Shown: one piece after another, positions 10,839-59,034 of the stretch
How the letters are laid out: every line of letters begins with the position of its first letter
Position numbering within the stretch: the stretch's first letter is position 1
Origin: Candidatus Borrarchaeum weybense
Lineage (GTDB): Archaea; Asgardarchaeota; Sifarchaeia; Borrarchaeales; Borrarchaeaceae
Reading direction: 5' to 3'
NCBI GenBank assembly: GCA_019057385.1
Contig: JAHQJS010000005.1
Location: forward strand, 128,699 to 192,698
Length of the DNA stretch: 64,000 bases
Translations under genes and position numbers: made by a program
The notes under the pieces: generated by a model
The model's input: the letters and a program-made list of their open reading frames with translations, nothing else
What the model was told of the DNA's origin: nothing
The model's database searches: none

Positions 10839-11813
10839 ATGAGCCCCTTCGTCTCTATCCTTGTTCCTTGCTTAAACGAAGAAAATACTTTGCGTTCTCT
10901 TACAGGACGTGTTGAAAAGACTCTTGCTGGACTACAAAATATTCAATGCGAACTTATCTTTATAGATGATGGAAGTACAGACGAAACGGGGTCAATAATT
11001 GATCAATTAAGTCAAGAAATTCCATGGGTGAAGGCATATCATCATTCAACAACAAAAGGAAAATCTGCAGCCATAATGAACGGTTTTTACCATTCTAAAG
11101 GAAATATCATAATTCTATTAGATGCAGATCTGCAATTCTTTCCTGAAGACATTCCAGCAATCCTTTCAGAAATGACTCAGAAAAAATTAGATATTGTTAA
11201 TGGCTGGAGAAAGGAGCGAAAAGATCCTTTGTCCAGAAGGGCTGCATCTCGTCTCTATAATTCCTTTGCAAGTTCTCTCTTCGGACTAAAGGTTCATGAT
11301 TATAACTGTGGGATCAAAGGTCTAAAACGGGAGGTATTAGAATCCTTCAGATTAAGAAAAGGATATCATCGTTATATACTGGCCCTTGCAAAGCATCACG
11401 GGTTTCGTATAGGCGAAGTAGTAGTTCAACATGCCCCTCGCCCGTATGGAAAGTCTAGATACCGAACTAGTCGACTATTTGCAGGATTTGTGGATTTGAT
11501 GAGTTTAAAACTTCAATTCATGTTTATGGAGCGCCCCATGTCACTGTTTGGCGTGCTTGGCGCATTTATCTTCCTCCTCGGTCTTATTTCTGGAGCTTAT
11601 CTTGTATATCTTTGGTTTCTTGAAGGCGGTATTGGTACACGACCACTTCTCTTCCTTACAGTCCTCTTACTTGTTGCAGGCATTCAGTTTTTCTCATTTG
11701 GATTTTTAGCTGACGCAATTGCATCTTTAAAAACAGACGTTGATTATCTTAATCAATTAGTCATACAGAGGAAAGAAGAAAACACAAAAGGTCAATCACC
11801 CCCTAACAAGTGA
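10839..11813 (+). CDS. GT2 glycosyltransferase (ArnC/dolichol-phosphate type) with two C-terminal TM helices
   Basis: VPCLNEE, IDDGSTD, LDADLQ, HDYNCGIK; stop codon lies inside the adjacent element. Confidence 0.92.
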   Translation: MSPFVSILVPCLNEENTLRSLTGRVEKTLAGLQNIQCELIFIDDGSTDETGSIIDQLSQEIPWVKAYHHSTTKGKSAAIMNGFYHSKGNIIILLDADLQFFPEDIPAILSEMTQKKLDIVNGWRKERKDPLSRRAASRLYNSFASSLFGLKVHDYNCGIKGLKREVLESFRLRKGYHRYILALAKHHGFRIGEVVVQHAPRPYGKSRYRTSRLFAGFVDLMSLKLQFMFMERPMSLFGVLGAFIFLLGLISGAYLVYLWFLEGGIGTRPLLFLTVLLLVAGIQFFSFGFLADAIASLKTDVDYLNQLVIQRKEENTKGQSPPNK

Positions 11814-12199
11814 GGGGGCTTGTTCCGTGAGGAACAAGAGTAATTGGTTGATTAGCCTAAGAGAGGTCGTGGTGGAACACACATGACGGTATCTACGTTA
11901 TCAGGAGAGTTAAAGAACACACCAAGGGATGCTTCTCTAGTCCCGTGCTCTGTAAACGGTGGTTTAAACAGAGAGGAAACTCTCAGTGATCATCGTAGAG
12001 TACTGACTGATAACCTTGGCGAAGAGAACCTACTCCCCTGGTGTTGGGAGCGGCGGGACTTGCGAGTACCCGTTATTAAAACACCACCCGAGGTTGGGTA
12101 CACCAACCCCTGTCTTCGCAGAAAGGGTTGTGTGAGCAACGCTCGACCTCAATTCATGTATCCCCCCAACAAGTTGAGGGGTCTTCTTGCGAGGTAGTT
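11791..12199 (+). mobile_element. Non-autonomous IS200/IS605 element carrying a stand-alone IscB-type omegaRNA (HEARO-like), no iscB ORF
   Basis: GTCAATCACCCC..GGGGGCTTG, GTTGATTAGCCTAAG, CTACGTT, ACACC-GGATGCTTCTCTAGTCC, TAAACAG..CAGTG, AACCTTGGCGAAGAGA motif series; terminal AATTCAT-hairpin-TTCTTG-N10 then ATAAA. Confidence 0.85.
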
Positions 12200-18807: not shown

Positions 18808-21807
18808 TTGCAAGTTATCCAAAAGCTTGGTGAAAAACTGGTGTACAATGAACTCAACTATGAAGTCGTCAAAAGCCTTAAAGCATGGATAAAATTCATT
18901 TCAAAGGTTATTTTTGTCACTGATCGAAAAACTAAAACTGAATTTATCGTCTTTTTAATCGCTAAACTCATTTCTATCCAAACATTAGCGGATTTTGGCA
19001 TTATTGATCCACAATGGCTTAAGAATTCGTGGAATTCCTTCAATAAAAAATTGTATTCGAACGGCAAACTTACTGTATTAAAGAAGTTTTTTGAACAAAT
19101 TGATGTACTATTTAGGGAATATTTTCATCGTGATCTGTTTAAGTTAAATATTCTTGAATATATTGACGAGAACGAAGATAATATTGCAATCTTCTATCAA
19201 AACCTGCAATTAGTTCTGGGTCTTAACAATAGCCAAGATTCATCTAGCAAGCTTAAGGGCATAACACAATATAATTATCAACATATCAATGAAAATATCT
19301 TCGGAAAAGTCTATGAAAACTGCCTTACTGAGATACGTCACGAAGAGGGCGTCTACTATACTCCTTCACATATTGTGGAATTTATCGTTGAGAACACTGT
19401 AGGCGAGGTATTTGATCAATATCTCACAGAAATAGAGTTTCAGATGAATGAAAAAAACTTCGAAGAAATAACAAGATTACTTCATAAATTTGTATCATTA
19501 AAAGTCTTAGATCCTTCCTGTGGTTCAGGAGCTTTTCTCATTGAAGTTTTTCGAGTAATAGAAAAGAAATACTCGACGCTTAATCAATTAATTTCGAAAC
19601 TTGAGACGAGATATTATTCATACAGAGGCTACAAACATAAATCTGGTGAAATGGAAATAAAAACTTCAAAAATTAATGAAATGAGAAATATTTTTGGAAC
19701 ACAAGACGAACACAAACTAATATTCAGTATTCCTATAAGACACCTATTTGGAATTGAATTGGATAAAACTGCTCTCAATATAGCCAAGATCAGTATCTTG
19801 CTAGAAACTATAAAACTAGCTTCATCACAACCTGGATTGGAAGAAAGTCTAAGAGAAGGTGGTCATCAGTTTTCTTATTTGGAAATGAATTTTATACATG
19901 GTAATACTGTTGTAGGGCTTCCTAATGAACATATTATTAAACATCTAAAACAAAAGAAATTAGAGATCCGCCAACTTTTTGAGGTAAGGAATTCATATCT
20001 TGCTAATTTTGAAAATCCAAGACCTCTAGTAGACATAGAATGCGTTAAATCAAGTCTAAGAAAAGAACTAGATGAATGTTTCCAAAGATATCTTGAAAAT
20101 CTGAATTTAACTTCAGATATTTTGGAGGATACAATTCCATTATATTGGGCTCTTGAGTTTTGGTATGTTTTTTTCGATCAAGAGGGAATCACTTTAAGCG
20201 AGGGTGATTCAGGTTTTGACATTGTTATAGGTAATCCGCCTTATATCGATTCTGAGACAATGACGAAGATGAGTCCCAATATCAGACATTATTGTGCAAA
20301 ACAATATGTAAGCGCGTCTGGCAATTGGGATTTATTCTGTGTATTTATCGAAAAGGGAATTACACATACTAAGAAAGATGGATATTTTAGCTATATTATC
20401 CCAAATAAACTTCTCGCTGCTGAGTATAGCTTAGAAACACAGAAAATACTTGAAAAATATGCTCTCAAGAGGATAAGTGATTATTCAAGAACGAAAGTTT
20501 TTGAGTCAGATACAAGTGTGTATCCCATTGTGATTGTTTTACAAAAATCATCTCCTAAGAGCAATGATATTATCCAAGTAGAGATTATTGAAGAGTCAGA
20601 AGAAAACGAACTCAAATTATCCTCTGAAAACCAAATTACTGTGGAAACGTTTAGGGAACTTCCAAAAGGTTTGTGGTCTCCTTTAGTTAGAGAAAACTTT
20701 CCATTTATTCAAAAGGTTTTGAACATTTCCAACGCTCTTCTTCAACATAGTAAAATTGTTGGAGCTGCCTCTGTTTCAGAGGCGTATAAAATAAAAGAAA
20801 TTTTAAAGGAAACCTCAGAAAGCGAATTTAATCAAAGTAATTTAGCGTTTATAAACACAGGAACCATAGATCGTTATAATGTACTTTGGGGACTTCTACC
20901 AACAAGGTATATTAAAAAAACTTATAGCAAACCTATTGTCAGACGTAGCGATCTTAGAAATATCTCAGAAAAGAGATTAAATGAATCAACTTCTCAAAAA
21001 ATCATTATTGCTGGAATGACACTAAGACTTGAAGCAATATATGACCTAGGCTATCTGGTGGCTGGAAAATCAACTATTCTCGTGCTCCCAAAAGACTTAG
21101 ACTTGAAATTTTTGATAGCGTGTATTAATAGCAAACTGATTAGTTTTATTTATAGAGAACTTTTTGAATCACTGTCATTGCATGGGAGATATCTTCGTAT
21201 CGGTCCCCCTCAAATTTCACGCATTCCCATTCGCCGCATCAATTTTTCCACAGCAACAAACACCCGTAAGGCTCTTTTTGAAGAAGCAAAAAAACTCTAT
21301 AAAAAATATCTAGTAACTAAAGATTACAACATAATCAGCGATTTCATCGAAGATCGTCTACCAAAAGACAAAAAGGGTGATCTAATCATCGAAAATGAAG
21401 AAAGTGACATTATTTATGACATCTTAATTTATTTAGCTGAACAGATAATAGAGCTGAACAAACAGAAAAATGAAGTAATTACAGAATTCATCGAATGGTT
21501 CGAAAAGGAACTAGATACGAAAATTGAGAATATGATTCACAAAAAGAAGTTGATATTTTATTATGATCTTGATTGTAATGAGTTTCTAGACGTTCTGGGA
21601 AAAAATCAAGCTCAAATTCCCATAATACTCTCAGATAGGGCAGTTCAAGATAGTCTAAGGAAAGTGTTTGAAAAAAACCTTGCGATACTTTCCCCTCTGA
21701 TAAATAAACTCAAATTAGTTGATGAACTCATTGACCAAGTCGTTTACAAACTCTATGGGTTAACTGATGAAGAAATTGAGACAGTGGACACTACTATTCC
21801 ACGTTAA
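18808..21807 (+). CDS. N6-adenine DNA methyltransferase, type IIG/Eco57I-like with target recognition domain; N-terminus appears truncated
   Basis: GVYYTP, VLDPSCGSGAFL, FDIVIGNPPY, C-terminal IDQVVYKLYGLTDEEI. Confidence 0.88.
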   Translation: MQVIQKLGEKLVYNELNYEVVKSLKAWIKFISKVIFVTDRKTKTEFIVFLIAKLISIQTLADFGIIDPQWLKNSWNSFNKKLYSNGKLTVLKKFFEQIDVLFREYFHRDLFKLNILEYIDENEDNIAIFYQNLQLVLGLNNSQDSSSKLKGITQYNYQHINENIFGKVYENCLTEIRHEEGVYYTPSHIVEFIVENTVGEVFDQYLTEIEFQMNEKNFEEITRLLHKFVSLKVLDPSCGSGAFLIEVFRVIEKKYSTLNQLISKLETRYYSYRGYKHKSGEMEIKTSKINEMRNIFGTQDEHKLIFSIPIRHLFGIELDKTALNIAKISILLETIKLASSQPGLEESLREGGHQFSYLEMNFIHGNTVVGLPNEHIIKHLKQKKLEIRQLFEVRNSYLANFENPRPLVDIECVKSSLRKELDECFQRYLENLNLTSDILEDTIPLYWALEFWYVFFDQEGITLSEGDSGFDIVIGNPPYIDSETMTKMSPNIRHYCAKQYVSASGNWDLFCVFIEKGITHTKKDGYFSYIIPNKLLAAEYSLETQKILEKYALKRISDYSRTKVFESDTSVYPIVIVLQKSSPKSNDIIQVEIIEESEENELKLSSENQITVETFRELPKGLWSPLVRENFPFIQKVLNISNALLQHSKIVGAASVSEAYKIKEILKETSESEFNQSNLAFINTGTIDRYNVLWGLLPTRYIKKTYSKPIVRRSDLRNISEKRLNESTSQKIIIAGMTLRLEAIYDLGYLVAGKSTILVLPKDLDLKFLIACINSKLISFIYRELFESLSLHGRYLRIGPPQISRIPIRRINFSTATNTRKALFEEAKKLYKKYLVTKDYNIISDFIEDRLPKDKKGDLIIENEESDIIYDILIYLAEQIIELNKQKNEVITEFIEWFEKELDTKIENMIHKKKLIFYYDLDCNEFLDVLGKNQAQIPIILSDRAVQDSLRKVFEKNLAILSPLINKLKLVDELIDQVVYKLYGLTDEEIETVDTTIPR

Positions 21808-48352: not shown

Positions 48353-50052
48353 AACAAATGCCAACTATTACGGTGTCCTACAATGACCTTATTAGTCTGA
48401 TTGGAAAAGAAATCCCATTAGAAACATTAGAGGATCGTTTGTTTTACATTAAAGCAGAAGTTGAAGATATCACACCCATTTACGGGTCAAAAAATGAAGT
48501 TGTTGACCACGATCTTCAAGTTGAGATCACTTCAGACAGACCAGATCTGCTCTCAGCAAGTGGTCTCGCACGCGTCTTAAAAGGTGTTTTTGAAGTAGAA
48601 ATGGGCCTCCAAAAGTTTGATGTTGAACCTTCTGGAATTCAATGCACTGTTGACTCTTCTGTACTAGATGTACGTCCCTATATCGTTTGTGGCGTCGTAA
48701 AAAATGTTCATTTAACAGATGCCTTAGTTCGACAGTTAATGCAACTTCAGGAAAAAATTCACGATACCCACTGTCGTAGACGACGAAAGGGCTCTATTGG
48801 ACTTCACAATCTCGATGCGGTTGAGCCTCCTTTCACATACTTGGCAGAAAAACCAGAGAATATCAACTTCGTTCCACTTAACGAGACAGAAAAAATGAAT
48901 GGCTATGAAATACTAAGAGAGATTCCAAAAGGGCGGGATTATGCTCATATAATATCGGATTTCGACAGATATCCGCTTTTGGTAGATAAAAACGGTGATG
49001 TTCTCTCCCTGCCACCAATAATCAATGGCAATCTAACAAGAGTTGACATGGATACTAGAAATCTCTTTTTTGACGTGACCGGAACTGATGAATATATCAT
49101 TATTTATGCTCTACACATTCTTCTTGCTGATCTTTACGATCGTGGCGCGAAAATCGAATCAGTTGAGATCCTCTATCCTGACAAAACTCCTGAAGTCTAT
49201 CCTAACTTCACACCTACTAAAATGAACTTGAGTCTACAAAACACAAATGAACTGCTTGGATTTGGCTTAAACCTAAATGATTTAACAACAATACTGAAAA
49301 AAATGCGATTTGATTCAAAAGAAATTGATGATGACACTTTAGAGGTTCTTGTGCCTGTATATCGACCAGACTTTCTTCATGAAGTTGATATAATTGAAGA
49401 CGTAAGTATTGGCTATGGCTATGATATAATGGAACCTGAGCTTCCGCAATCAATGACTGTGGGCGGGGAACTTCCTTTAAGCACATTCGAACGTAAGATT
49501 AAAGATTTGATGGTTGGAATGGGCTTTCAAGAAATTTTGAATTATGTCCTTACAAATATGCATGATCTTGAGACAATTCGTTCGTTTACTGAATCTAATG
49601 AGATAACTGAAATTGCAAACCCAGTAAGTGAAAAATATACTTTCATTCGTAATCAATTGATGCCAGGACTCATTAACTTTCTAAGTAAAAATACCCATAG
49701 TGCTTTTCCACAGAAAATCTTTGAAGTAGGTCCTGTCGGAATCCCTGATTCGTCTTTCATAAATAAAGTACGTACTGTTTCAAGAATAGCTGCAGCCATT
49801 ACTGACTATGCTACAAGTTATGAGCACATTCAAGCAGTAGTGGGAGGGCTTCTCACCAACTTAGGCGTTCCATTTAAACTGAAAACTGCGGTCAATCCTT
49901 CTTTTCTTGAGGGAAGAGTTGCTGAGGTCTTTGTAAAAGGTAACAAAGTAGGTGTTTTGGGAGAACTTCATCCCGAGGTATTGCTTAAATTTAAACTAGA
50001 AAACCCCACCGCCGTTTTCGAAATTGAAGAACTCCCTCTCTTTGAAGCATAA
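48349..50052 (+). CDS. pheT: Phenylalanyl-tRNA synthetase beta subunit
   Basis: DRPDLLS, QLQEKIH, SLPPIING, RPDFLHEVDIIEDV, GELHPEV. Confidence 0.97.
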   Translation: MKQMPTITVSYNDLISLIGKEIPLETLEDRLFYIKAEVEDITPIYGSKNEVVDHDLQVEITSDRPDLLSASGLARVLKGVFEVEMGLQKFDVEPSGIQCTVDSSVLDVRPYIVCGVVKNVHLTDALVRQLMQLQEKIHDTHCRRRRKGSIGLHNLDAVEPPFTYLAEKPENINFVPLNETEKMNGYEILREIPKGRDYAHIISDFDRYPLLVDKNGDVLSLPPIINGNLTRVDMDTRNLFFDVTGTDEYIIIYALHILLADLYDRGAKIESVEILYPDKTPEVYPNFTPTKMNLSLQNTNELLGFGLNLNDLTTILKKMRFDSKEIDDDTLEVLVPVYRPDFLHEVDIIEDVSIGYGYDIMEPELPQSMTVGGELPLSTFERKIKDLMVGMGFQEILNYVLTNMHDLETIRSFTESNEITEIANPVSEKYTFIRNQLMPGLINFLSKNTHSAFPQKIFEVGPVGIPDSSFINKVRTVSRIAAAITDYATSYEHIQAVVGGLLTNLGVPFKLKTAVNPSFLEGRVAEVFVKGNKVGVLGELHPEVLLKFKLENPTAVFEIEELPLFEA

Positions 50053-50081
50053 AAGAATAAGAATTACATTAATTAATGTTC

Positions 50082-50567
50082 TCACTTTTTTTCTTCAAGC
50101 AGCTTCCCATTTTTGTTAATTGTCCCTGCCCTAATTCGTGACGATGAGATTGGCATCCCATCTTCTGCTAATATTCGGGGAACACTTATTATGGTTAAGG
50201 GCACAAGCCTATTTGCTTTTCTTATGTCATTGATTTCTTCTGCAGTAGGACGAGTTTCTTCAGTAACGATTATTGCCTCCATTTCAGGTAATGTAATAGC
50301 AGGACCATATCGATCATTAAGCTTCACAATTTTGGCGCGTTGGAGAAGTCCATTATTTTGCAAATAGTTTTCCATGTTTTTAACGCGCTGCGTATAAGAT
50401 TGGACTTTTTTGGCGTTATCTTTATCGGAGAGCATTTCCTCAGAAGTAATTCCAATTAAAACATGCTCTCCGATTTTAAAAGCTTTCTGAAGAAGTGTTT
50501 TATGTCCTTTATGAATACGGTCGAAGGTCCCACCAATACCGACAAACGAATATTCTTTTTGTGGCAC
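50082..50567 (-). CDS. coaD: Phosphopantetheine adenylyltransferase (archaeal type)
   Basis: GGTFDRIHKGH, YGP, IVTEET, ISSSRIR. Confidence 0.93.
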   Translation of the reverse strand: MPQKEYSFVGIGGTFDRIHKGHKTLLQKAFKIGEHVLIGITSEEMLSDKDNAKKVQSYTQRVKNMENYLQNNGLLQRAKIVKLNDRYGPAITLPEMEAIIVTEETRPTAEEINDIRKANRLVPLTIISVPRILAEDGMPISSSRIRAGTINKNGKLLEEKK

Positions 50568-50655
50568 AGATTACCCTCAGGTTCCCTCTACATTTTTATG
50601 TGACAAACTAAAAAAATAATTGTTAGCCTCCCCACTAAAAAAACTTGTTTCGAAT

Positions 50656-51087
50656 CTACGCGCTTTGAGCGGTTTCTGTACTTTGAGGTTTAACTTCGAG
50701 GGGATTATAGGCATAAATTAAATCTATGTAAAGTGTATCTTGTCCTCCACATAGCGGACAATTTCCTAGTTTCTTGTAGACATAATCGCCTTCCTTGAAG
50801 TCTCTAATTTCTGAGTATTCGCATCCTTCTTGTTCGCATTTTAATTGAGACACTGTATGCCACTCAATCTTTTTTGAACGTCCTCTGATCCAGAAATTAA
50901 ATAACCAGATAGCTCCAAGTATTAGGAGTCCAAACAGCAATTGTGTTTGCCATTGACTCCCTTGTGGATTCTGAAAATAGCCTGTAGTTGCCGATACTAT
51001 GAAATATAAGGATACTACCATTCCAATGCCTATAAGGATTAAAATTACACGCGAAACGCGTGCTTGGGGTCTTTTTTCTTCACTCAT
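50656..51087 (-). CDS. Membrane protein with C-terminal zinc ribbon
   Basis: Two TM helices, C..C and FKEGDYV..CPLC. Confidence 0.75.
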   Translation of the reverse strand: MSEEKRPQARVSRVILILIGIGMVVSLYFIVSATTGYFQNPQGSQWQTQLLFGLLILGAIWLFNFWIRGRSKKIEWHTVSQLKCEQEGCEYSEIRDFKEGDYVYKKLGNCPLCGGQDTLYIDLIYAYNPLEVKPQSTETAQSA

Positions 51088-51097
51088 CTTTTCAACC

Positions 51098-52231
51098 TCA
51101 TTGTCCTACTCCAAGTGTGTTTCCAATTCCTGCTACGACTATCGTATCTCCTTCGTTTGTTTGATTATTAATAATCCAATGAATGCGTTTAATGACGTCA
51201 TCTACGGACGTTGCTATTGATTTTTTCATTGAAGTCAGAGCGTCCTCGATCGATTGCTTTACTATTATTGCATCAATAGGGATGTTGTACTTTACCCCAG
51301 ATTCTTCTATTTTGTGTTTTTCGGGACCGGGATCGCCAATTGCTGCGCCGACACCTTCGATCACATCGCCGGTCACTTCGCCTTCTAACTTCAAGGCGGC
51401 ATCGATCATTATTACACGAGCAACTTTCCCTTCTTTTTCCTCTATGACATTCTTTACTCCAAGTCCGGGCTTTCCAACAGTACCTCCGGGTCCCTTAGCC
51501 TTTACAATGATGACATTGCGGTTATTTATGTTCTTTTCGACTGCAACGACCTCTTTTGCTACCTCCTTCGGTTCACCGCCTCTCATGAGTCGCGCTGCGA
51601 CAAGAGGTCCTACGCCATCACCGATGGGTTTACCTTCTGCAAAGCACTTTAACGCTTCGAAATACGCCTTAGCGAAGATCATAATTAAGGGGAGCTGCAT
51701 GTAAATCTGCATGATTAAAAATGTGCTCTTAGTTTTCTTGCCAAGTAATAAGAAGTGACGTATTATTCTAAAGATAGTGAAAACGGCTATTGTCGCCTCA
51801 ATCACGTTTTCAAGTGTTTTAGAATCCGCCTCATTCGCTTTAGGTGCTACGCGAGAGACGAAATCTTCGAATCTTGACTTTCTCACATCCATCAAATGCT
51901 CTAATCGGTTTAAAACTCCTGCCGGGTCTTTATCCACAGGCATTATCATAAAGAATTCAAGGAAACCTTCTATCGTATCAAACACTTCCTCGTCAGAAGC
52001 ATCGCTAAAATTCGAGACCCGTAACTTGCAGATTACTTTGCCTTCTCGCTGCCATACATCTAACTTCATTAGTGCACGTTCAATTTGTTTAAGCCACATG
52101 AACTGCTGAATACGCTGTCCATAAAATATTGAGAAAATGATAAAGACAAAGAATAATAAATTGAAGATAACGGCATATGGATTACTTCCTTCCCCACCGC
52201 CACCTGTTAATAAATCTAATAACCCTTGCAT
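51098..52231 (-). CDS. Conserved archaeal DUF1512-like protein
   Basis: PIGDGVGPLVA, KAKGPGGTVGKPG, IDAALKLEGE, GIGNTLGV. Confidence 0.85.
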   Translation of the reverse strand: MQGLLDLLTGGGGEGSNPYAVIFNLLFFVFIIFSIFYGQRIQQFMWLKQIERALMKLDVWQREGKVICKLRVSNFSDASDEEVFDTIEGFLEFFMIMPVDKDPAGVLNRLEHLMDVRKSRFEDFVSRVAPKANEADSKTLENVIEATIAVFTIFRIIRHFLLLGKKTKSTFLIMQIYMQLPLIMIFAKAYFEALKCFAEGKPIGDGVGPLVAARLMRGGEPKEVAKEVVAVEKNINNRNVIIVKAKGPGGTVGKPGLGVKNVIEEKEGKVARVIMIDAALKLEGEVTGDVIEGVGAAIGDPGPEKHKIEESGVKYNIPIDAIIVKQSIEDALTSMKKSIATSVDDVIKRIHWIINNQTNEGDTIVVAGIGNTLGVGQ

Positions 52232-52411
52232 TGTTTTCAGCCAGCCTCAAATACATGTATTTATCCGTTTCTGTATTCCTAAGACACTTTGCTATGCATT
52301 ATCCTTTTCACTTTTAAACTATTCCGTAATGGACACAGTTGACAAGAATTCAGACAGTATTCATTGAATAGAGAGAACATCCTCTTTGGTATTGATATAA
52401 GCAGAAAAAGT

Positions 52412-52534
52412 GGACCTTCAGCATTCAGGTTTCCCATCTGCTCTCGCAAGGTAGTACTCCCACGAACGTCTCCAGACTTAACTTCTGAGTTCGGCCGGGA
52501 TCAGGTGTGGCCCTGGAGCGATGGCCGAAGATCC
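52412..52534 (-). rRNA. 5S rRNA (stand-alone)
   Basis: GGATCTTC..GAAGGTCC terminal helix, CACACCTGATCCC, CCGAAC, GAAGTTAAG, AGTACT, GGGAAAC; upstream TTTATATA. Confidence 0.95.
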
Positions 52535-52615
52535 AATATAAGGCATATCCCATCTATATAAAAACTTTACTACAAAGTATCAATACGTCAATCGTTGATC
52601 TAGAAAAAGTAAAGA

Positions 52616-52662
52616 TGGTGGGGACGGAGGGATTTTCAGAAAGAGAGACTTTCTCTCTTTTA
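52616..52662 (-). pseudogene. Displaced 3' end of tRNA-Trp with T-loop intron remnant (att-like direct repeat)
   Basis: 52616-52635 identical to 53505-53524; adjacent sequence matches the tRNA-Pro 59/60 intron. Confidence 0.8.
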
Positions 52663-52675
52663 TTTTTATTAATAA

Positions 52676-52997
52676 GTGAGCTACCTCGTGCGAAAGCATG
52701 GAGGCTTCCTGCTTCTCAGACGGACTCGATCCCCGTCCGTGACGGGTTACGGAGGTCGTATCTCCACAGGCTTAACATCCCTACGCCCCGTAGGTACGGT
52801 AAACGATGGTGAGACCATCGGAGTATGCACCTTGTCGGCAAGTGTTCCTGTTATCCCTCCAATTGCTGTTGATATCTTTCTCATTTCACCTATATAACTT
52901 GAGGCAGACCCCCCATTGCACATGATGCAAGTGAACATACACATCTACCGCAATTCATCACCACGCTGAAGCGCTGGTGCTTTCTTGCTTAGCTACT
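52676..52997 (-). mobile_element. Non-autonomous IS605 mini-element with TnpB-type reRNA scaffold and 45-aa remnant ORF
   Basis: About 120 bp near-identical to 46551-46668; left end closely resembles that of the TnpB element at 40032. Confidence 0.85.
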
Positions 52998-53078
52998 AGC
53001 AAAAAAAGTAAGATCAAACCTATAAAAACTTCTATTGAAAGAAAGCAAGAGTAAGATGACCCAGGAGTAGACGCCCTC

Positions 53079-53399
53079 TCAAAGTTTTGGGTCCGGGTCT
53101 TCGGTGTTTTCGCCACCTTCTTGTATCAGCAGCATCCGCATTGTTGACGATGCATGCCGGAATACCATTGCTTCTTGGTACTCAGGATCAGCTATCCAAG
53201 CCTCAACGTGAGTTTTGCTCGGAAACTCTAATATTACCATCCTATCTGTGTATGTCTCTCCTTCCAATGTAGTAACCGGTTCCCCGCGTGTGAGAAACTT
53301 CCCTTGGTACTTCTTCACTATGGGTGGTGTCCTATCCGTGTATTTACGATAGGTATCTGGATCATGGATCGCCATCATCGAAATTACATACGCTGGCAT
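53079..53399 (-). CDS. DUF1330 family protein
   Basis: MPAYVI..YRKY..KYQGKFLTRG..LEG..VILEFPS..YQ. Confidence 0.9.
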   Translation of the reverse strand: MPAYVISMMAIHDPDTYRKYTDRTPPIVKKYQGKFLTRGEPVTTLEGETYTDRMVILEFPSKTHVEAWIADPEYQEAMVFRHASSTMRMLLIQEGGENTEDPDPKL

Positions 53400-53504
53400 T
53401 TATTACTCTCCTATGGATATTGTTGAGTTCAACTCCACCGCGTTCAAAAGATTTGAATCGGTTAAGAGAAAAATATCATCTTACTGTATGATGATTCTTA
53501 AAAG

Positions 53505-53762
53505 TGGTGGGGACGGAGGGATTTGAACCCCCGATTCGAAATGAGACTTCCCTAATTTTGACTGATGTTTTTTGCCTCATTCTTCCGCCAACCGTGAGAA
53601 CCACGCCACGTGTTGCCATCGGGTTTCTCTGGTAAGCACAACTCCAGAAGATCTTCATCCTTCCGTCAGTTTTTGCTATTTACAACCTCTGGAGCCCGAC
53701 GTGCTACATTACCTCATACTAACCTACCAGAGATTAATACGAACTGGCTACACTACGTCCCC
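53505..53762 (-). tRNA. tRNA-Trp(CCA), four predicted introns (18/19, 37/38, 45/46, 46/47)
   Basis: GGGGACG/CGTCCCC acceptor, TCGGG-CTCCAG..A-CCCGA, GGGGG-TTCAAAT-CCCTC, encoded CCA; introns 53708-53743, 53625-53688, 53583-53616, 53535-53581. Confidence 0.9.
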
Positions 53763-53866
53763 AATTGCTACAATTGTAGACACGAAATAGTGATCAGGTT
53801 TTGTTTTAAATTTTACTAAAAATGATAAATTAGTTGTTTCTCAACAAAAAAATAGCCCAGAACAGG

Positions 53867-55015
53867 TTATTCTTTTCTTATAAAACCCACAAGTTTCTTC
53901 AAATCGTCCGCAGTCGCTGATGGACCTACAAGTAATACTTTCTTGCGCCCATCCCCTCCTACATGACAATAGAGTACCATATTTTCTGTTCCTACGATGT
54001 ATATGTCGCAATCCTCTACATCACTTAAAACTAATGTATTTTTAGTTCTCTCTTTTTGTAACTCACCTTTCTGTAACAAGGTGTCTTGAAACTTTTCATC
54101 CCTGACGGCGTCTAAAAGAAACCCAATATCGCCCCAGAGACTCCCATCAACTGTGATATAGTAATATTCATTGAATCGTGAATTAAGGTCATTTGAGAAA
54201 TCTAACGGTCCAAGTGGTTGAGATTTTTTGTAAGAAAGCCGCACAACATCATCAGCATCATCACCTTCGCTAACAGCCTCTTTTATAGCCTGTGTTAGTT
54301 TATCTAACACAACATCACCTGAGAAGGCCCTTAACCATGCAAAAATCGTTCCGCTCCAAATCATGGTGTTAATTCCAAAAACCACATCTGCACCAACTTT
54401 TTCTAATGTGCTTGCATCCGGTTTCTCACGAAATTGAACGCATTCCAAAAGGGGGTATTCGCCCTCTTCTAAGAGAATACATTCAGCAATACCCATTTGT
54501 GTCGGATCGTGATGATCCTGGACTGAGGCTTGCAAACCTATAATTTTTTCTGGATGTTCCAACGTCTTATTTAAGAGGACAAGTTCAGCATTGATGAATG
54601 CATCTGCTTTATCATGATCACACGGCATAAAGATTAGGAGAATTTCTTCTGCACAATCCTCGTTGATCCATCCCGCATTCTTGCATTTCTTACATTGATT
54701 CACATGGGAGTAAATTATTCGTGCAATTGCAGCTGGAAACATATGTCCATTAGAACGGACATAAGGAGGCTCTTTAAGGACTATATCGATTTTAGCCTCT
54801 TTAATCCACGATTGCATTGCATCATCCTCTTTGATGGCGAGTATAACTTGTAGAGGTGTCCGTTCTCGAACACGCAGAACATCGGCCAGCAATATCCTAG
54901 TTTTATCTCGTTTTATCTTCAATAAGTGCTTAGGAAATCCTCCAAATCGCGTTGCTCGTCCCCCAGCCGATGTTAAAAGATATTTCTCTGTGTGATGGAT
55001 TTTATCCTGTGCCAT
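53867..55015 (-). CDS. Divergent sugar-phosphate nucleotidyltransferase (ManC-like)
   Basis: AGGRATRF..PKHLL, MPCDH, FREKPD, INTMIW, WGDIG. Confidence 0.75.
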   Translation of the reverse strand: MAQDKIHHTEKYLLTSAGGRATRFGGFPKHLLKIKRDKTRILLADVLRVRERTPLQVILAIKEDDAMQSWIKEAKIDIVLKEPPYVRSNGHMFPAAIARIIYSHVNQCKKCKNAGWINEDCAEEILLIFMPCDHDKADAFINAELVLLNKTLEHPEKIIGLQASVQDHHDPTQMGIAECILLEEGEYPLLECVQFREKPDASTLEKVGADVVFGINTMIWSGTIFAWLRAFSGDVVLDKLTQAIKEAVSEGDDADDVVRLSYKKSQPLGPLDFSNDLNSRFNEYYYITVDGSLWGDIGFLLDAVRDEKFQDTLLQKGELQKERTKNTLVLSDVEDCDIYIVGTENMVLYCHVGGDGRKKVLLVGPSATADDLKKLVGFIRKE

Positions 55016-55189
55016 TGCGTTCTCCTCATTTTACTCTTCAGACATCTCATCTGAACACCATGATTTTGGAAATGTCTCTTCATTTCTACATTAAGTCAGG
55101 TTACAAATAAAAAAGTTAACTTCGATATCGAGAACTTCGCTCAGAATTATTATGAGCACCTTTTAATCCATGTAGTTATCTGAGCAATT

Positions 55190-55735
55190 TTAATTTATAA
55201 AGAAGTTCGTTTGATAGATATTTCCTGTGGCTGAGTAAATAGTGACCCTTACAGAACTATCTGTAAGAAAATAGTCTCCAGATCCTTCACAATACAACTT
55301 AAAGCTAACGAAAATACGAGATGCAGGGATCGTCACCCCTAAATCATTCCCTTTAGGATTAAGTAAAGTCTCATCATCATTTAGATATACAGCTACTTTC
55401 CAGTTGTTATCCGTTCCAGATGTCCAAATTCTACCATCATTTTCTACTTCTAGATGTGTCAAAGTAATTTCTGTACCCCCTGTATTAGTAACAACAAAAC
55501 TCATAGCATAATCCTGTGATGCACCTCCTGGTGCAACCGAGAACTTATTGGCTCTGTCTCCATCTCTCGCATGATATTGAAAACCGCCAATCGCAATAGC
55601 TTCTTGCTGGCTTGCCACATAAAGAAATGCAAAACTAAAAAACATTATCACGGAGACTAATATTCCCAGAAATAAAATATATGGAGTTTTAGCTTTGAGT
55701 TTATACACGACCCAGCCCTCTTTTCCCAAAGTCAA
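55190..55735 (-). CDS. Archaeal pilin-like surface protein
   Basis: Basic N-terminus + TM helix, VTNTGGTEITLT strand, VRVTIYSATGN C-terminus; cleavage site atypical. Confidence 0.55.
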   Translation of the reverse strand: MTLGKEGWVVYKLKAKTPYILFLGILVSVIMFFSFAFLYVASQQEAIAIGGFQYHARDGDRANKFSVAPGGASQDYAMSFVVTNTGGTEITLTHLEVENDGRIWTSGTDNNWKVAVYLNDDETLLNPKGNDLGVTIPASRIFVSFKLYCEGSGDYFLTDSSVRVTIYSATGNIYQTNFFIN

Positions 55736-55913
55736 TTAACTTGATATCATTTTTTTCAAGTGAGTGGCTCTCAATATTAAATGGAACAAATGGAACATAT
55801 AGATTAAATGAATATAAGAAGCATATAGATCCAAGCTTCATGGATTCAGGGTTCACCATAAAGGTTAAAAAAATAAAAAACAAATCAAATAAAAAGCAAT
55901 GCCACCAATAAGA

Positions 55914-56016
55914 GCCGCCGTAGCTCAGCTGGTAGAGCGTTGGACTTGTAATCCAATGACAGTTCTGCTATTCGCATAACTGGTGGAAGTCGAGGGTTCA
56001 AATCCCTCCGGCGGCT
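55914..56016 (+). tRNA. tRNA-Thr(TGT), one intron at 45/46
   Basis: GCCGCCG/CGGCGGC, TTGGA-CTTGTAA-TCCAA; 30-nt insertion 55959-55988. Confidence 0.93.
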
Positions 56017-56058
56017 TCATATACTGTCTCACATCCCAAAAGACAGTTTATTTAATGT

Positions 56059-56259
56059 GGGCGGGTGGTCTAGCATGGTATGATTCCGGATTTGGGTGCC
56101 CTCCTCTTAATGAGGAGACAAAAACATCCGGAGTTCTGCTTGGGTAACCCCAGCACGATACGGAATGACTCTACACGCGCGCTGTGGTGTCCCGTTTGCC
56201 GGGAGTTCGAAGGAATAGAGAGAAACCCTCTCTTTCTGAAAATCTCCCCTCGCCCACCA
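56059..56259 (+). tRNA. tRNA-Pro(TGG), four predicted introns (37/38, two tandem at 45/46, 59/60)
   Basis: GGGCGGG/CTCGCCC, CCGGA-TTTGGG..A-TCCGG, GGGAG/CTCCC, encoded CCA; introns 56097-56125, 56134-56165, 56166-56197, 56212-56242. Confidence 0.88.
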
Positions 56260-56351
56260 CTCTTTTTGAAAAATAAGTATTGAATAAGATAATATAATTC
56301 CTAAAATCATACTCTAATTCATTATTTGAAATGCTCAAGTTAGGTGTTTAG

Positions 56352-57809
56352 ATGAATCATGTGGAAATAATGATGCTCGATAAGAAGACCCGAATCGTTC
56401 TTTGGCAGTGTCTTGTTGAAGTTATTGAAGAATATATTACAAATGTTAATCAAGCACGCGTTGCCCCCTATTTAGATGCAGATAAGATACGATCTCTGCT
56501 AAACTCTATTACATTTACAAAGTCCATAGATCCTTTACAGGCATTGAATTTTGTAGTGAAAGGCTTGTGGGACTATCAAATGCATGTAGCTAATCCACAA
56601 TACTTTGGATTATTCAATCCGTCTCCAACCACAATGGGGATCGCAGCTGATGCTTTGGTTGCTGCTTTTAATCCTCAACTCGCAACATGGAGTCATAGTC
56701 CCTTTGCCGTGGAAGTTGAACAACATTTAATTCGATTTTTTGCTTCTCAATTTGGTTATAATTCGGAAAAAATAGATGGCACTTTTACATCTGGTGGTAC
56801 TGAAGCTAATCATACAGCTCTATTAACAGCTCTCACTCACAAATTTCCAAAATTTGCACAAAGAGGGCTAAGAGGACTCGACACACTGCCTAAACTGTAT
56901 GTTTCTACAGAGAGTCATCATTCTCTTATAAGAACTGCTCGTTCATGTGGTCTGGGCGTAGAGGCAGTGCAACAAATACCTGTAGACGATTCATTGCAAA
57001 TGAAAGTTGATGTGCTTATTGAGCAAATTGCAAAAGATAGAGACGTTGGGTTCGCTCCATTTCTAGTCGCGGCTACCGCAGGAACGACAAACGCCGGAGT
57101 GGTAGATCATATAAAAAGAATTGCTGATGTAGCAGAAAAGGAGAAACTTTGGTTTCACGTTGACGCGGCATGGGGAGGTGCGATCGTATTTGTAACTGAA
57201 ATGAGAAATGTTCTTGAAGGCATTGAACGATCAGATTCGATCACATTCGACACACATAAGTGGCTAAATGTCCCTATGGGCGCTGGTCTATTCTTAACTC
57301 GCCATCCAGAAATTCTCCTCAGAACTTTTTCTATAGAAGCCGATTATATGCCAAAAGATGCGTTGGGATTAAATGTAGTAGATCCATATATTCGTTCCCT
57401 CCAGTGTTCCCGCAGATTTATTGGTCTAAAAGTCTTTTTATCTCTTGCTGTGGCAGGATGGAATGGATATAGCACCGTAATTAGACACCAAGTAAAAATG
57501 GGAGATTTATTGCGCCAAGAACTTAAAAAATCAGGTTGGAAAATCGTCAATCAGACAAAGTTACCAGTTGTGTGTTTTGTTGATCAACAAAGACCAGAAG
57601 GGAAATCTGTCGAGTTCGTCGAAAGCATCGCTCAGGGAGTCGTTTCTTCTGGAAAGGCTTGGATTTCTACTACAAGACTGAAACAGAATATACCTGTGCT
57701 TAGAGCTTGTATTACCAACTACCGGACAGAACCAGAAGATATTCATGCTTTAGTCCATGTGCTCAACGAAACAAGGCAAGCTTTTTACAGCAAAATTCGT
57801 CAAACATAG
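56352..57809 (+). CDS. Group II PLP-dependent decarboxylase
   Basis: FTSGGTEAN, ATAGTT, HVDAAWGG, DTHKWL. Confidence 0.92.
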   Translation: MNHVEIMMLDKKTRIVLWQCLVEVIEEYITNVNQARVAPYLDADKIRSLLNSITFTKSIDPLQALNFVVKGLWDYQMHVANPQYFGLFNPSPTTMGIAADALVAAFNPQLATWSHSPFAVEVEQHLIRFFASQFGYNSEKIDGTFTSGGTEANHTALLTALTHKFPKFAQRGLRGLDTLPKLYVSTESHHSLIRTARSCGLGVEAVQQIPVDDSLQMKVDVLIEQIAKDRDVGFAPFLVAATAGTTNAGVVDHIKRIADVAEKEKLWFHVDAAWGGAIVFVTEMRNVLEGIERSDSITFDTHKWLNVPMGAGLFLTRHPEILLRTFSIEADYMPKDALGLNVVDPYIRSLQCSRRFIGLKVFLSLAVAGWNGYSTVIRHQVKMGDLLRQELKKSGWKIVNQTKLPVVCFVDQQRPEGKSVEFVESIAQGVVSSGKAWISTTRLKQNIPVLRACITNYRTEPEDIHALVHVLNETRQAFYSKIRQT

Positions 57810-57820
57810 CTTTCAAGTTA

Positions 57821-58312
57821 TCATGTTAATGAAAGTGTAGTATCCTCTTTCTCAGTAGAAAGTACAATAACACTCCGCGTTCGTCCCACTCCAGGAATAC
57901 GATTAATGGTTCTTATCATTCCCTCAAGAGTTGATATATTTTCGGTCTTCACTTTAATAAGGTGATCTGCATCCCCCGCCAAGTTAAATACTTCCAAGAC
58001 ATCCTTCATATTAGCAACTTCGTAAGGAACAGCCACATCTGGTTCATGGGCCTTAAAATCTAATGTAATTTCAATAAAGGCGGTAACATCTTTGCCTAAC
58101 TTTTTCTCGTCTAAAATAACTGTGTACTTCTTGATGATTCCACTTTCTTTCATTTTTCTTATTCGTTCATGGACTGTCGGAATCGCTAAATTTACAATTT
58201 CATCGCTTGCAATAGTTTTAATTGGTCTTGATGAATCCTCTTGTAGTAATTCAAGAATTCTCAGGTCTTTTTCATCTAACGTGAAGCCATTTGTTGACAC
58301 CATAAACTTCAC
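57821..58312 (-). CDS. Lrp/AsnC transcriptional regulator
   Basis: LDEKDLRILELLQ HTH, ERIRKMKESGIIKKY, RAM domain. Confidence 0.93.
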   Translation of the reverse strand: MKFMVSTNGFTLDEKDLRILELLQEDSSRPIKTIASDEIVNLAIPTVHERIRKMKESGIIKKYTVILDEKKLGKDVTAFIEITLDFKAHEPDVAVPYEVANMKDVLEVFNLAGDADHLIKVKTENISTLEGMIRTINRIPGVGRTRSVIVLSTEKEDTTLSLT

Positions 58313-58447
58313 CCTCTACTTTTAGTGTTATCACTAAGTGAATATTTTCTTATTGATATATAAAGGTTCCCTCATATTTTCTTTGATAACTGATATAAAC
58401 CAGAAGAAATAATACAAATATTGAAGTTGACCGAAAAGAGATGTTAA

Positions 58448-58780
58448 TTGTACGAAAATAATGGAGGCATTATTATCATGTCATTTGAAGTTAATTTTAA
58501 TAGAGTAACTCAAAATTTGAACACGGTTATATTAAGTGAGGAAAGGAATCTGCTACAAGAAATAGCAAAACCACAAATCTTAAAGAGTCTTAGAATATCA
58601 GAAAACAAACTCTTGCGGCTAGTTCTGAAAGATCAAAAATACTTTATTGAGTTAATAGCGAGTGGTTATAAAGTTACACAGTTAGCAGCAGGGAAAACTA
58701 CTCTACAAGAGGCAGAAAAATGTTATGTGGAACTCCTCCATAAGATAAAAAATGGAGGAAGCATGCTAGAGCCATATTGA
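58448..58780 (+). CDS. Hypothetical protein
   Basis: ORF with GGAGG before MSFEV. Confidence 0.6.
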   Translation: MYENNGGIIIMSFEVNFNRVTQNLNTVILSEERNLLQEIAKPQILKSLRISENKLLRLVLKDQKYFIELIASGYKVTQLAAGKTTLQEAEKCYVELLHKIKNGGSMLEPY

Positions 58781-59034
58781 TTCGAAACATTACCGCAGTT
58801 CATTAGTTTTTTATGATTTTATAATCGTTAAGCACTTACTCCGAAATTTTTTTCGTTGTTGCATCATCTTTTTACTACTTTTTCTGATTCAGTAATTATC
58901 TGTATAAAAATTGCCGTAAATCTTTAGTCAAAACGGTTATAACCCCGAAAATCATTAATATATATAGGTAGGAATACCTAAAATATTTCATGATCTATCG
59001 TGATAGTTACAAATAATGAAAGAGGTGAGGGGAA

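Follow-up and report, generated by a model that had tools for sequence, protein, structure and literature searches.

How does a tRNA gene come to lack an intron whose remnant, still joined to a second copy of the gene's own 3' end, lies within a kilobase downstream of it? The question is raised by the tRNA-Trp(CCA) locus of the Asgard archaeon Candidatus Borrarchaeum weybense (genome G000; 4.18 Mb in 8 contigs), which lies in a stretch of 64,000 nucleotides, G000:C5:128699-192698 (contig JAHQJS010000005.1), that was analysed as a whole and is called the window here. Read along the minus strand, the locus consists of a gene for a 382-aa protein, the tRNA-Trp(CCA) gene (53762-53505), a 25-nt trailer, a DUF1330 gene (53399-53079), a repeat element of ~330 bp (~53004-52676), a 17-nt AT-rich linker, a 26-nt intron-like piece (52658-52633), a second tRNA-Trp 3' exon with CCA (52632-52616), an 83-nt trailer and the 5S rRNA gene (52532-52413). 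We refer to the DNA between the two tRNA-Trp ends as the islet. How non-canonical tRNA introns arrive and disappear in Asgard archaea is an open question that this locus addresses: the evidence supports the distal segment being the dead remnant of an intron-bearing tRNA-Trp 3' end, the intron of which, at position 59/60, is missing from the working gene.

Our comparisons involve a different species that also bears the islet (G002; contig L002) and, for tRNA-Trp, five related lineages, namely the metagenome-assembled genome 'Candidatus Borrarchaeum yapensis' (G004; contig L014), whose tRNA-Trp type is also carried by L025, three lineages represented by metagenome contigs of relatives (L018, L016/L023 and L033), and an out-group family (G005; contig L043). 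The features from which the remnant is recognized are:

53505..53524, minus strand: proximal repeat copy, inside the working gene, comprising the T-loop AAA, positions 60-76 and CCA
52633..52658, minus strand: fossil 59/60 intron, of which there remain the inner hairpin, the 3' bulge and, from the central helix, the 3' strand (TGAA)
52616..52632, minus strand: fossil 3' exon (positions 60-76) with CCA, which together with the preceding AAA makes up the distal repeat copy 52616-52635; identical to that of G002 (17/17)
56059..56259, plus strand: tRNA-Pro gene, whose 59/60 intron (56212-56242) is the nearest relative of the fossil intron in the genome

A repeat finder places the exact 20-nt direct repeat TGGTGGGGACGGAGGGATTT at 52616-52635 and 53505-53524, 889 bp apart, with the similarity of the two copies reaching 26 nt at 92%; an initial annotation made from the letters of the window had described just such a 20-bp repeat of the tRNA-Trp 3' end, bracketing an islet of ~0.9 kb. 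Allowing up to 3 mismatches, the 18-nt tRNA-Trp 3' end occurs only twice, both in the window and in the whole 4.18-Mb genome, and the search that the annotation had proposed for another tRNA with this 3' end yields none genome-wide. Among the 71 tRNA-like 3' ends with encoded CCA in the genome, that of tRNA-Trp alone has an extra copy outside a tRNA. The 26-mer that precedes the distal copy (52633-52658, minus strand) matches 56217-56242 in tRNA-Pro at 24 of 26 positions, where shuffled sequences lead one to expect 0.00 such matches, and the matched stretch is the tRNA-Pro 59/60 intron, as had been claimed. This 26-mer adjoins a 17-nt 3' exon that is identical to that of the working tRNA-Trp, the only tRNA that it matches. 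It agrees at 21/26 positions with the intact tRNA-Trp 59/60 introns of B. yapensis, L018 and L033, and at 22/26 with the corresponding fossil of G002, which is the level of divergence of the flank.

The fossil thus consists of the last 26 nt of a 59/60 intron, the 17-nt 3' exon, CCA and a trailer typical of the lineage, with its junction to the 5S gene intact. The first ~5 nt of the intron and the whole 5' half of the T-arm are absent, and the segment, when folded alone, forms only a 9-bp hairpin with no T-arm partner; hence, it is a relic rather than a spliceable intron. In keeping with this, neither inspection of its parts nor the fold recovered in the fossil a complete bulge-helix-bulge motif, with its two 3-nt bulges and a 4-bp helix formed with the T-loop; our bulge-helix-bulge assignments come from manual pairing and comparison of alleles, and minimum-free-energy folding draws no 4-bp central helix. 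A permissive Rfam scan of 52300-54000 returned only the 5S rRNA and a tmRNA-like match on the tRNA 3' end, and nothing for the repeat element or the fossil. The relic is probably without function. A 24-nt fossil core, 52616-52639 in the window, is identical (24/24) between G000 and G002 (L002 333-356), where the adjoining trailer is 80% identical.

The arrangement recurs in other data: over the junction of the tRNA and the islet, Logan contigs from a public run and a second deposited assembly, both of which may share the source sample, are 100% identical, and G002 shows the DUF1330-fossil-5S junction in the same arrangement. The structure is therefore not an artefact of assembly, an outcome that the initial annotation had named as one that would undo its case. 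The public runs were compared as assembled contigs, and holes in the contig cover of other runs were ignored. A contig joint from 52658 to 53514 in run X2 (21 nt on one side, at the depth of the main contig) most likely represents the tRNA-Pro intron aligned to the fossil and was not counted.

The working gene itself is intact and complex:

53505..53762, minus strand: working tRNA-Trp(CCA) gene, 258 nt with encoded CCA
53708-53743, minus strand: D-loop intron, 36 nt
53625-53688, minus strand: 37/38 intron, 64 nt
53583-53616, minus strand: 45/46 intron, 34 nt
53535-53581, minus strand: 46/47 intron, 47 nt

A single-nucleotide exon, G46 at 53582, separates the 45/46 and 46/47 introns, while the T-loop is uninterrupted, with no intron at 59/60. 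Removal of the four inserts leaves a sequence of 77 nt that ARAGORN calls as tRNA-Trp(cca), canonical in silico, and the tRNA-Trp 5' exon occurs in a single copy genome-wide, inside this complete gene. Unaided, ARAGORN found no tRNA in the window and Rfam just two of the interrupted ones, with both missing tRNA-Trp; interrupted tRNA genes were therefore parsed by alignment to compact alleles. In the region of the 45/46 and 46/47 introns (53535-53616), one pairing of the splicing motif requires prior removal of the upstream intron. An alternative central helix (CGGA with TTCG), which uses the 3' end of the upstream intron, is also possible, and thus the sequence alone does not fix the order in which these two introns are spliced. 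The core of the 37/38 intron, which is near-invariant in five Borrarchaeum-type alleles, the rest of the intron differing among them, holds a CTGA, a box-like motif GATGAAGA and a stretch complementary to the anticodon loop. It recalls the tRNA-Trp intron of Haloferax, which contains a C/D-box guide RNA.

Is the absence of the 59/60 intron from the working gene ancestral or derived? Intron sets were obtained from spliced alignment free of any motif, together with ARAGORN, and all the alleles splice in silico to tRNA-Trp:

G000 working gene: D-loop, 37/38, 45/46 and 46/47 introns; no 29/30 and no 59/60; islet, fossil and 5S downstream
G004 (also L025): D-loop, 37/38, 45/46 and 59/60 introns; no 29/30 and no 46/47; 5S directly downstream
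L018: D-loop, 37/38, 45/46, 46/47 and 59/60 introns; no 29/30; no islet; 5S inverted, ~0.5 kb off
L016/L023: 37/38 and 59/60 introns only, the 59/60 sequence unrelated to the others; 5S directly downstream
L033: 37/38 and 59/60 introns only; DUF1330 downstream; no 5S on the contig
G005 out-group: D-loop, 29/30, 37/38, 45/46 and 59/60 introns; no 46/47

A 31-nt insert follows the T-loop AAA in the tRNA-Trp of G004, L018, L033, L016 and the out-group G005, and contigs of two further studies have the T-arm joined to a 59/60 intron with no islet, one of them (run X14) together with the 46/47 intron. As all the sampled relatives possess the 59/60 intron and only the working copy of B. weybense is without it, the intron is ancestral for tRNA-Trp in this class. 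The two-copy islet arrangement is absent from every sampled intron-bearing relative. The comparison for which the initial annotation had called thus came out as it had foreseen in all five lineages, and its claim of a five-intron ancestor for tRNA-Trp is likewise supported, by the five-intron gene that exists in present-day L018 and by the X14 contig with 46/47 and 59/60 introns. The out-group G005 (L043, minus strand) also has five inserts in its tRNA-Trp, including one in the anticodon stem (29/30) that is not found in Borrarchaeum; five-intron tRNA-Trp genes thus occur in two families, at sites that are partly different. We had considered that the 46/47 intron arrived with the islet and dropped this idea, as L018 has that intron without any islet.

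What, then, lies between the two tRNA-Trp ends? The initial annotation had named a miniature insertion sequence and a DUF1330 gene, and this composition is borne out:

53051..53423, minus strand: DUF1330 cassette, with an open reading frame (ORF) at 53079-53399 (106 aa) and short flanks
52676..53004, no strand assigned: miniature inverted-repeat transposable element (MITE), a deletion derivative of an IS200/IS605-family TnpB element, with boundaries accurate to +/-3 nt
52659..52675, minus strand: AT-rich linker at the right end of the islet, 15/16 identical to G002
53021..53031, minus strand: 11-mer AAGTTTTTATA, promoter-like and identical in sequence to the 5S promoter motif of 52557-52567
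52413..52532, minus strand: 5S rRNA gene (Rfam RF00001, 77.6 bits)

The DUF1330 ORF matches Pfam PF07045 over positions 1-92 of the 94 of the profile (E=4e-27; 94.9 bits against a cut-off of 23). The family is highly conserved and widespread across bacteria and archaea, and among 31 relatives the cassette is found in G000 and G002 only. On a 2138-bp ENA scaffold from a remoter lineage, L033, a DUF1330 cassette that is 96% identical in nucleotides (338-879) begins 50 nt after a two-intron, intron-bearing tRNA-Trp, despite an upstream flank that is only ~69% identical to that of G000. An aminotransferase gene lies beyond the DUF1330 gene on L033, and there is neither a 5S gene nor a second tRNA end on that contig. 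Remoter relatives of the DUF1330 gene, at most 92% identical (L046, L055, P0003-P0006), stand in other gene contexts with no tRNA-Trp. The islet is foreign and its cassette moves laterally: the latter is 97-99% identical to its counterpart in G002, where the fossil and trailer next to it reach only 80-85%. A search of viral contigs returned no relative of this DUF1330 protein.

The MITE is present in more than 25 full copies, along with shorter variants, and longer copies that share its sequence or ends encode OrfB_IS605/Cas12f-TNB (TnpB) proteins of 427-432 aa. Its site is empty in G002; hence, it is a late insertion specific to G000 that followed the formation of the islet. The genome is in general rich in TnpB elements and their mini-derivatives, and a full-length HEARO RNA, an RNA associated with IS200/IS605 TnpB/IscB elements, lies at 11791-12033 in the window (128.7 bits). 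The linker is assigned to the high-identity block of the islet because of its near-identity to G002. The 11-mer AAGTTTTTATA, of which the 4.18 Mb hold 20 copies, may be what is left of a second 5S promoter; locally, it aligns with the 5S promoter region of B. yapensis at a marginal level (3/300 shuffles). The islet holds neither an integrase nor a fragment of one, its sole sizeable ORF being DUF1330, and the seven tyrosine recombinases (PF00589) of the G000 genome all lie outside the locus. In the islet-less L016/L023 and B. yapensis, by synteny, the 5S gene is directly 3' of tRNA-Trp.

The two tRNA-Trp ends are followed by different trailers:

53480..53504, minus strand: trailer of the working copy ('A-type'), homologous to the tRNA-Trp trailer of B. 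yapensis (G004)
52533..52615, minus strand: trailer of the fossil ('B-type') with the 5S promoter; the same trailer stands behind the intact tRNA-Trp of L016 and L018 and behind the fossil of G002

Anchored at the CCA, the A-type trailer agrees with that of B. yapensis at 19/25 positions, a score that random 25-mers reach or exceed with a frequency of 5e-6, and 0 of 12,850 pseudo-trailers reach 17; without the anchor, the islet ends align locally with trailer and 5S regions at a marginal level only. Between G000 and G002, identity is 96.8% in the DUF1330 ORF and 71/72 in the non-coding islet, as against 66/82 in the trailer behind the fossil and 109/120 in the 5S gene; the non-coding islet with the linker (86/88) differs in this respect from the intron remnant with the trailer (Fisher p = 2e-4). 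Given this drop in identity at the fossil, the islet is much younger, or was shared more recently, than the DNA from the fossil onward.

The flanks tell a similar story of mixed descent. A sliding comparison to B. yapensis gives 93-99% identity downstream of the 5S gene and 73-78% around the trailer and the tRNA. L016 is 97% identical both over the span from the repeat core to the 5S gene inclusive and over the final 223 nt of the upstream gene, with the differing block beginning in exon 1 and ending in the 3' exon. L016 (4770-4942) and L023, with flanks 93-97% identical to the window, nevertheless have a tRNA-Trp with only two introns; either the sequence of their 59/60 intron was replaced in place or the gene interior was swapped. 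The two-intron architecture is common to L016 and L033, and the intron-rich one to G000, G004 and L018. As intron architecture cuts across local similarity of the flanks, at least one replacement of the gene interior from lineage to lineage is required. More broadly, from 49200 to 58800 in the window, identity to L014 (G004), L016 and L018 jumps between ~66% and 99% in blocks of a few hundred bases; this blockwise pattern, one boundary of which falls at the tRNA-Trp/5S locus, argues for frequent homologous recombination among Borrarchaeum lineages. We had at one point taken flank identity as the marker of two clades, an idea dropped once the sliding comparison revealed a mosaic. On these alignments the locus is a recombination mosaic, in which the block that appears to have been swapped ends in the conserved terminal exons.

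How did the fossil arise? The two joins are informative. On the gene side the join is exactly at the 5' splice site, with the T-loop AAA followed directly by position 60, while the distal join falls ~5 nt into the intron, and a microhomology of A-runs is all that the sequences share across it; the junction is without the homology that a site-specific recombinase needs. With slightly better than even confidence, we propose that the fossil came about through recombination with DNA of a related lineage, the resulting block being later exchanged between Borrarchaeum lineages. The incoming DNA would have brought intron-less positions 60-76 with CCA, the B. yapensis-type trailer and the DUF1330 cassette, and would have met the gene at the 5' splice site within the T-loop. 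This would have displaced the older intron and 3' exon ~0.56 kb downstream, a distance that became 0.89 kb upon insertion of the TnpB-derived MITE. Because the joint offers only A-run microhomology and the locus no recombinase gene, the joining would have been by illegitimate or one-sided homologous recombination rather than by an integrase. The block of tRNA body, islet and fossil may then have passed among Borrarchaeum lineages through homologous recombination in which the invariant terminal exons served as anchors. We prefer this reading as it fits the mosaic, the two trailers and the absence of a recombinase, although the order of events and the mechanism of recombination are inferred, unlike the anatomy, the intron's presence in all the sampled relatives, the foreign and mosaic character of the islet and the MITE's late insertion. 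One claim of the initial annotation stays in doubt here: it had a single integration event swap the two ends, and we find no integrase or attachment site of a free element, no homology of the kind used by a recombinase, and the B. yapensis version of the trailer (19/25) behind an intron-bearing gene.

Several observations weigh against the recombination that we favour. G000 and G002 share an identical islet/fossil junction despite their diverged fossils and trailers, as site-specific integration predicts, and plain homologous transfer would need a crossover within ~15 nt of that junction. B. yapensis joins an A-type trailer with an intact 59/60 intron, and in L033 the DUF1330 gene adjoins an intron-bearing gene; since these features are combined there with intron-bearing genes, the intron may have been lost after rather than during the duplication. 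The complete identity of the fossil core beside its diverged trailer is more suggestive of gene conversion or constraint than of free decay; it could stem from gene conversion by the working copy or from crossovers inside the core. Finally, the 5' part of the working tRNA-Trp was not assembled in G002, and the state of its 59/60 site is thus unread.

The alternative that survives best, which we nevertheless regard as rather unlikely, is site-specific integration proper. In this account a small integrative or cis-mobilisable element that targets tRNA-Trp would have duplicated a core of ~46 nt, comprising the 3' part of the intron and the 3' exon, such that the fossil is the right attachment site (attR); the working copy, as the left site (attL), would at first have kept its intron and later lost it precisely, by deletion between AAA runs or by recombination with complementary DNA of the spliced tRNA. 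Direct repeats of the 3' part of a tRNA that flank a foreign islet, absent from relatives, are what such an event leaves, and the right junction is indeed identical in G000 and G002 amid diverged flanks, with the islet itself 97-99% identical. The account also accommodates the A-type trailer behind the intron-bearing gene of B. yapensis and the DUF1330 gene beside the intron-bearing tRNA-Trp of L033, the size of the core is typical of attachment sites (44 bp in SSV1; reviewed in PMC3293823), and, with ...AAA at the end of either splice site, slippage from one to the other would excise precisely the intron. Against this stand the absence of an integrase or its fragment from the islet, with all seven genomic tyrosine recombinases encoded elsewhere, and of any form resembling the element's own attachment site (attP), or any free form, among the 14 metagenomic and 1 viral matches to the core; the single viral match to the 20-mer belongs to an unrelated AT-rich tRNA-like gene. 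A relative of this DUF1330 is likewise missing from the viral collection, tRNA-Trp is the only tRNA in this genome with a duplicated 3' end, and the intron remnant (22/26) diverges in the manner of the host flank and not of the element (86/88). An additional step of intron loss, itself unobserved, is also required.

We consider it improbable that the fossil instead records a tandem duplication of the tRNA-Trp/5S unit, or a second allele inserted in tandem, after which everything from the start of the first 5S gene to a point within the second tRNA-Trp was deleted. The outcome would be a working tRNA from unit one, a working 5S gene from unit two and the fossil, with DUF1330 having entered the spacer of the first unit. 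The 5S-promoter 11-mer, with only 20 copies genome-wide, lies in the islet in the same orientation, in a context resembling the B. yapensis promoter, the presence of two different trailers would be explained, and the point at which the fossil is truncated looks arbitrary. However, the motif may be a generic promoter, the similarity beyond it being marginal (3/300 shuffles), no relative displays the full tandem state, and the far greater similarity of the islet than of the flank between G000 and G002 is left unexplained.

That the distal piece is functional, whether as the gene for the 3' 'half' of a split tRNA or as a processed RNA element of the 5S or DUF1330 transcripts, we judge very unlikely. 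The perfectly kept core next to an 80% identical trailer, the hairpin retained in both G000 and G002 with changes in the loop only, and the promoter-like motif upstream could be taken as signs of use. The genome has only one tRNA-Trp 5' exon, however, in a complete gene that splices to a canonical tRNA-Trp, and offers no partner with a complementary 5' part of the intron, so that the locus does not qualify as a split tRNA; relatives that are devoid of the islet manage without the piece, and its conservation can be explained by gene conversion from the working copy or crossovers in the core. Chance similarity or mis-assembly, to which nothing but the low sequence complexity of the intron lends itself, is refuted by the shuffles, which expect 0.00 matches, and by the junctions shared between independent assemblies and a second species.

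If recombination with related lineages removed an intron here, do introns also move between tRNAs, as the initial annotation had held? At least 22 tRNA genes of G000, all with an encoded CCA, bear a hairpin intron of 28-32 nt at 59/60 (e.g., C4:332490-334788, C5:184899 and C5:191476-191650). Among 22 of these, the GAGAGA...TCTCTTTCTGAAAA type is confined to four Pro genes and the Trp fossil, and relatives carry it in Pro genes, in the tRNA-Trp of G004, L018 and L033 and, in G004, in one further tRNA; the Trp 59/60 introns of L016 and the out-group are unrelated to it in sequence. At 24/26 (92%), the Trp fossil and the Pro intron fall within the range that defines a cross-isotype family (at least 80-90% identity at the same position in one genome), and it is likely from this resemblance that the Pro and Trp 59/60 introns are of common origin. 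Members of the family share 19-24/26 positions regardless of host tRNA and species, with unrelated 59/60 introns already reaching 14-18/26, and the Pro orthologues are identical between G000 and G004. Pairwise identities of the Pro and Trp introns hold no tree-like signal that would resolve direction or timing: neither the direction nor the recency of movement can be read, as the introns are just 26-31 nt long with ends fixed by pairing with the T-loop. Of the earlier claim of mobility, the kinship of Pro and Trp introns stands as likely, and movement between tRNAs is no more than possible. Borrarchaeaceae have 2.12 intervening sequences for each tRNA gene (Goswami et al., 2026, preprint); contig C1 of G000, unlike the remaining genome, carries clusters of uninterrupted tRNA genes (19436-19895, 74513-74748 and 161784-161928) and may be foreign, as a contaminant, plasmid or virus. 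The contamination score of the assembly is 7%.

The tRNA-Trp gene now offers a natural series: one allele with five introns, two distinct ones with four, one with two introns in near-identical flanks, and a relic of a lost 59/60 intron, situated where recombination has joined imported DNA. From this series, recombination between related lineages emerges as a mechanism at work in intron turnover. As a tentative generalization, to which we attach modest expectations, the intron complement of Borrarchaeum, and perhaps of intron-rich Asgard archaea, might turn over mainly by lateral replacement of whole gene interiors, with the islet being a non-autonomous mobile cassette targeted to tRNA-Trp. Were this so, introns and hitch-hiking cargo alike would be exchanged through homologous recombination with its anchors in the invariant first and last exons, many of the intron 'gains' and 'losses' placed on species trees would be imports of alleles, and the 0.5-kb DUF1330 islet with its flanking repeats of the tRNA end would be the mobile cassette.

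Among known systems, the attachment-site duplications that archaeal integrative elements of the SSV and pNOB8 types leave at tRNA genes (PMC3293823) share with the present locus repeats of the 3' part of a tRNA that flank foreign DNA, with the tRNA reconstituted on one side. The locus is unlike them in having neither a whole nor a split integrase, no attP that could be found and an exact repeat of just 20 nt, and in that the distal copy holds part of an intron that is missing from the reconstituted gene, which a simple crossover in a common core does not yield. The locus also bears on the idea that integration is hindered by introns lying in the part of tRNA genes where attachment usually takes place.

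With respect to intron families, those of the Thermoproteales that preserve position have been read as 'intron transposition' (Fujishima et al., 2010, as cited in the preprint 10.64898/2026.10.13.758758). Here too, similar introns occupy one non-canonical position (59/60) across isotypes, namely four Pro genes and Trp, although in our case 26-31 nt carry the signal, with ends that the splicing motif dictates. Such cross-isotype families are rare in Asgard genomes, at 1.5% for 80% identity and 0.2% for 90% (preprint 10.64898/2026.10.13.758758). Non-canonical introns as such are many, and a gene may have as many as five (PMC11291895; Goswami et al., 2026, preprint). These two studies are censuses that infer gains, and they report no general way in which introns arrive; the 2026 census preprint looked for one in copying from tRNA to tRNA, mobile elements and reverse transcription, without success. 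In contrast to such censuses, the present locus preserves a physical footprint, in the form of a fossil and alternative alleles in near-identical flanks, which points to turnover driven by recombination and to a dated loss.

The closest parallel is the tRNA-Thr(GGU) locus of Caldiarchaeum subterraneum, for which the authors invoke recombination between intron-bearing and intron-less versions of tRNA segments (Sugahara et al., 2012; PMC3293823). There, as here, a fragment lies near the working tRNA of the same identity, at a distance of 1-2 kb, with inserted DNA in between, the two differ in intron content, and close genomes differ at the locus (PMC3293823). The Caldiarchaeum fragment, however, is from the 5' end, the insert encodes a recombinase and the event is read as the gain of an intron (PMC3293823), whereas in the Asgard archaeon studied here the fragment is a 3' one with a partial intron, the insert is a DUF1330 cassette with a later MITE and no recombinase, and the intron was lost. 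Our locus is thus the mirror image of the Caldiarchaeum case, with tRNA-Trp alleles that span two to five introns, and it adds to the known cases of tRNA fragments and intron turnover one that parallels the Caldiarchaeum model, with loss in the place of gain.

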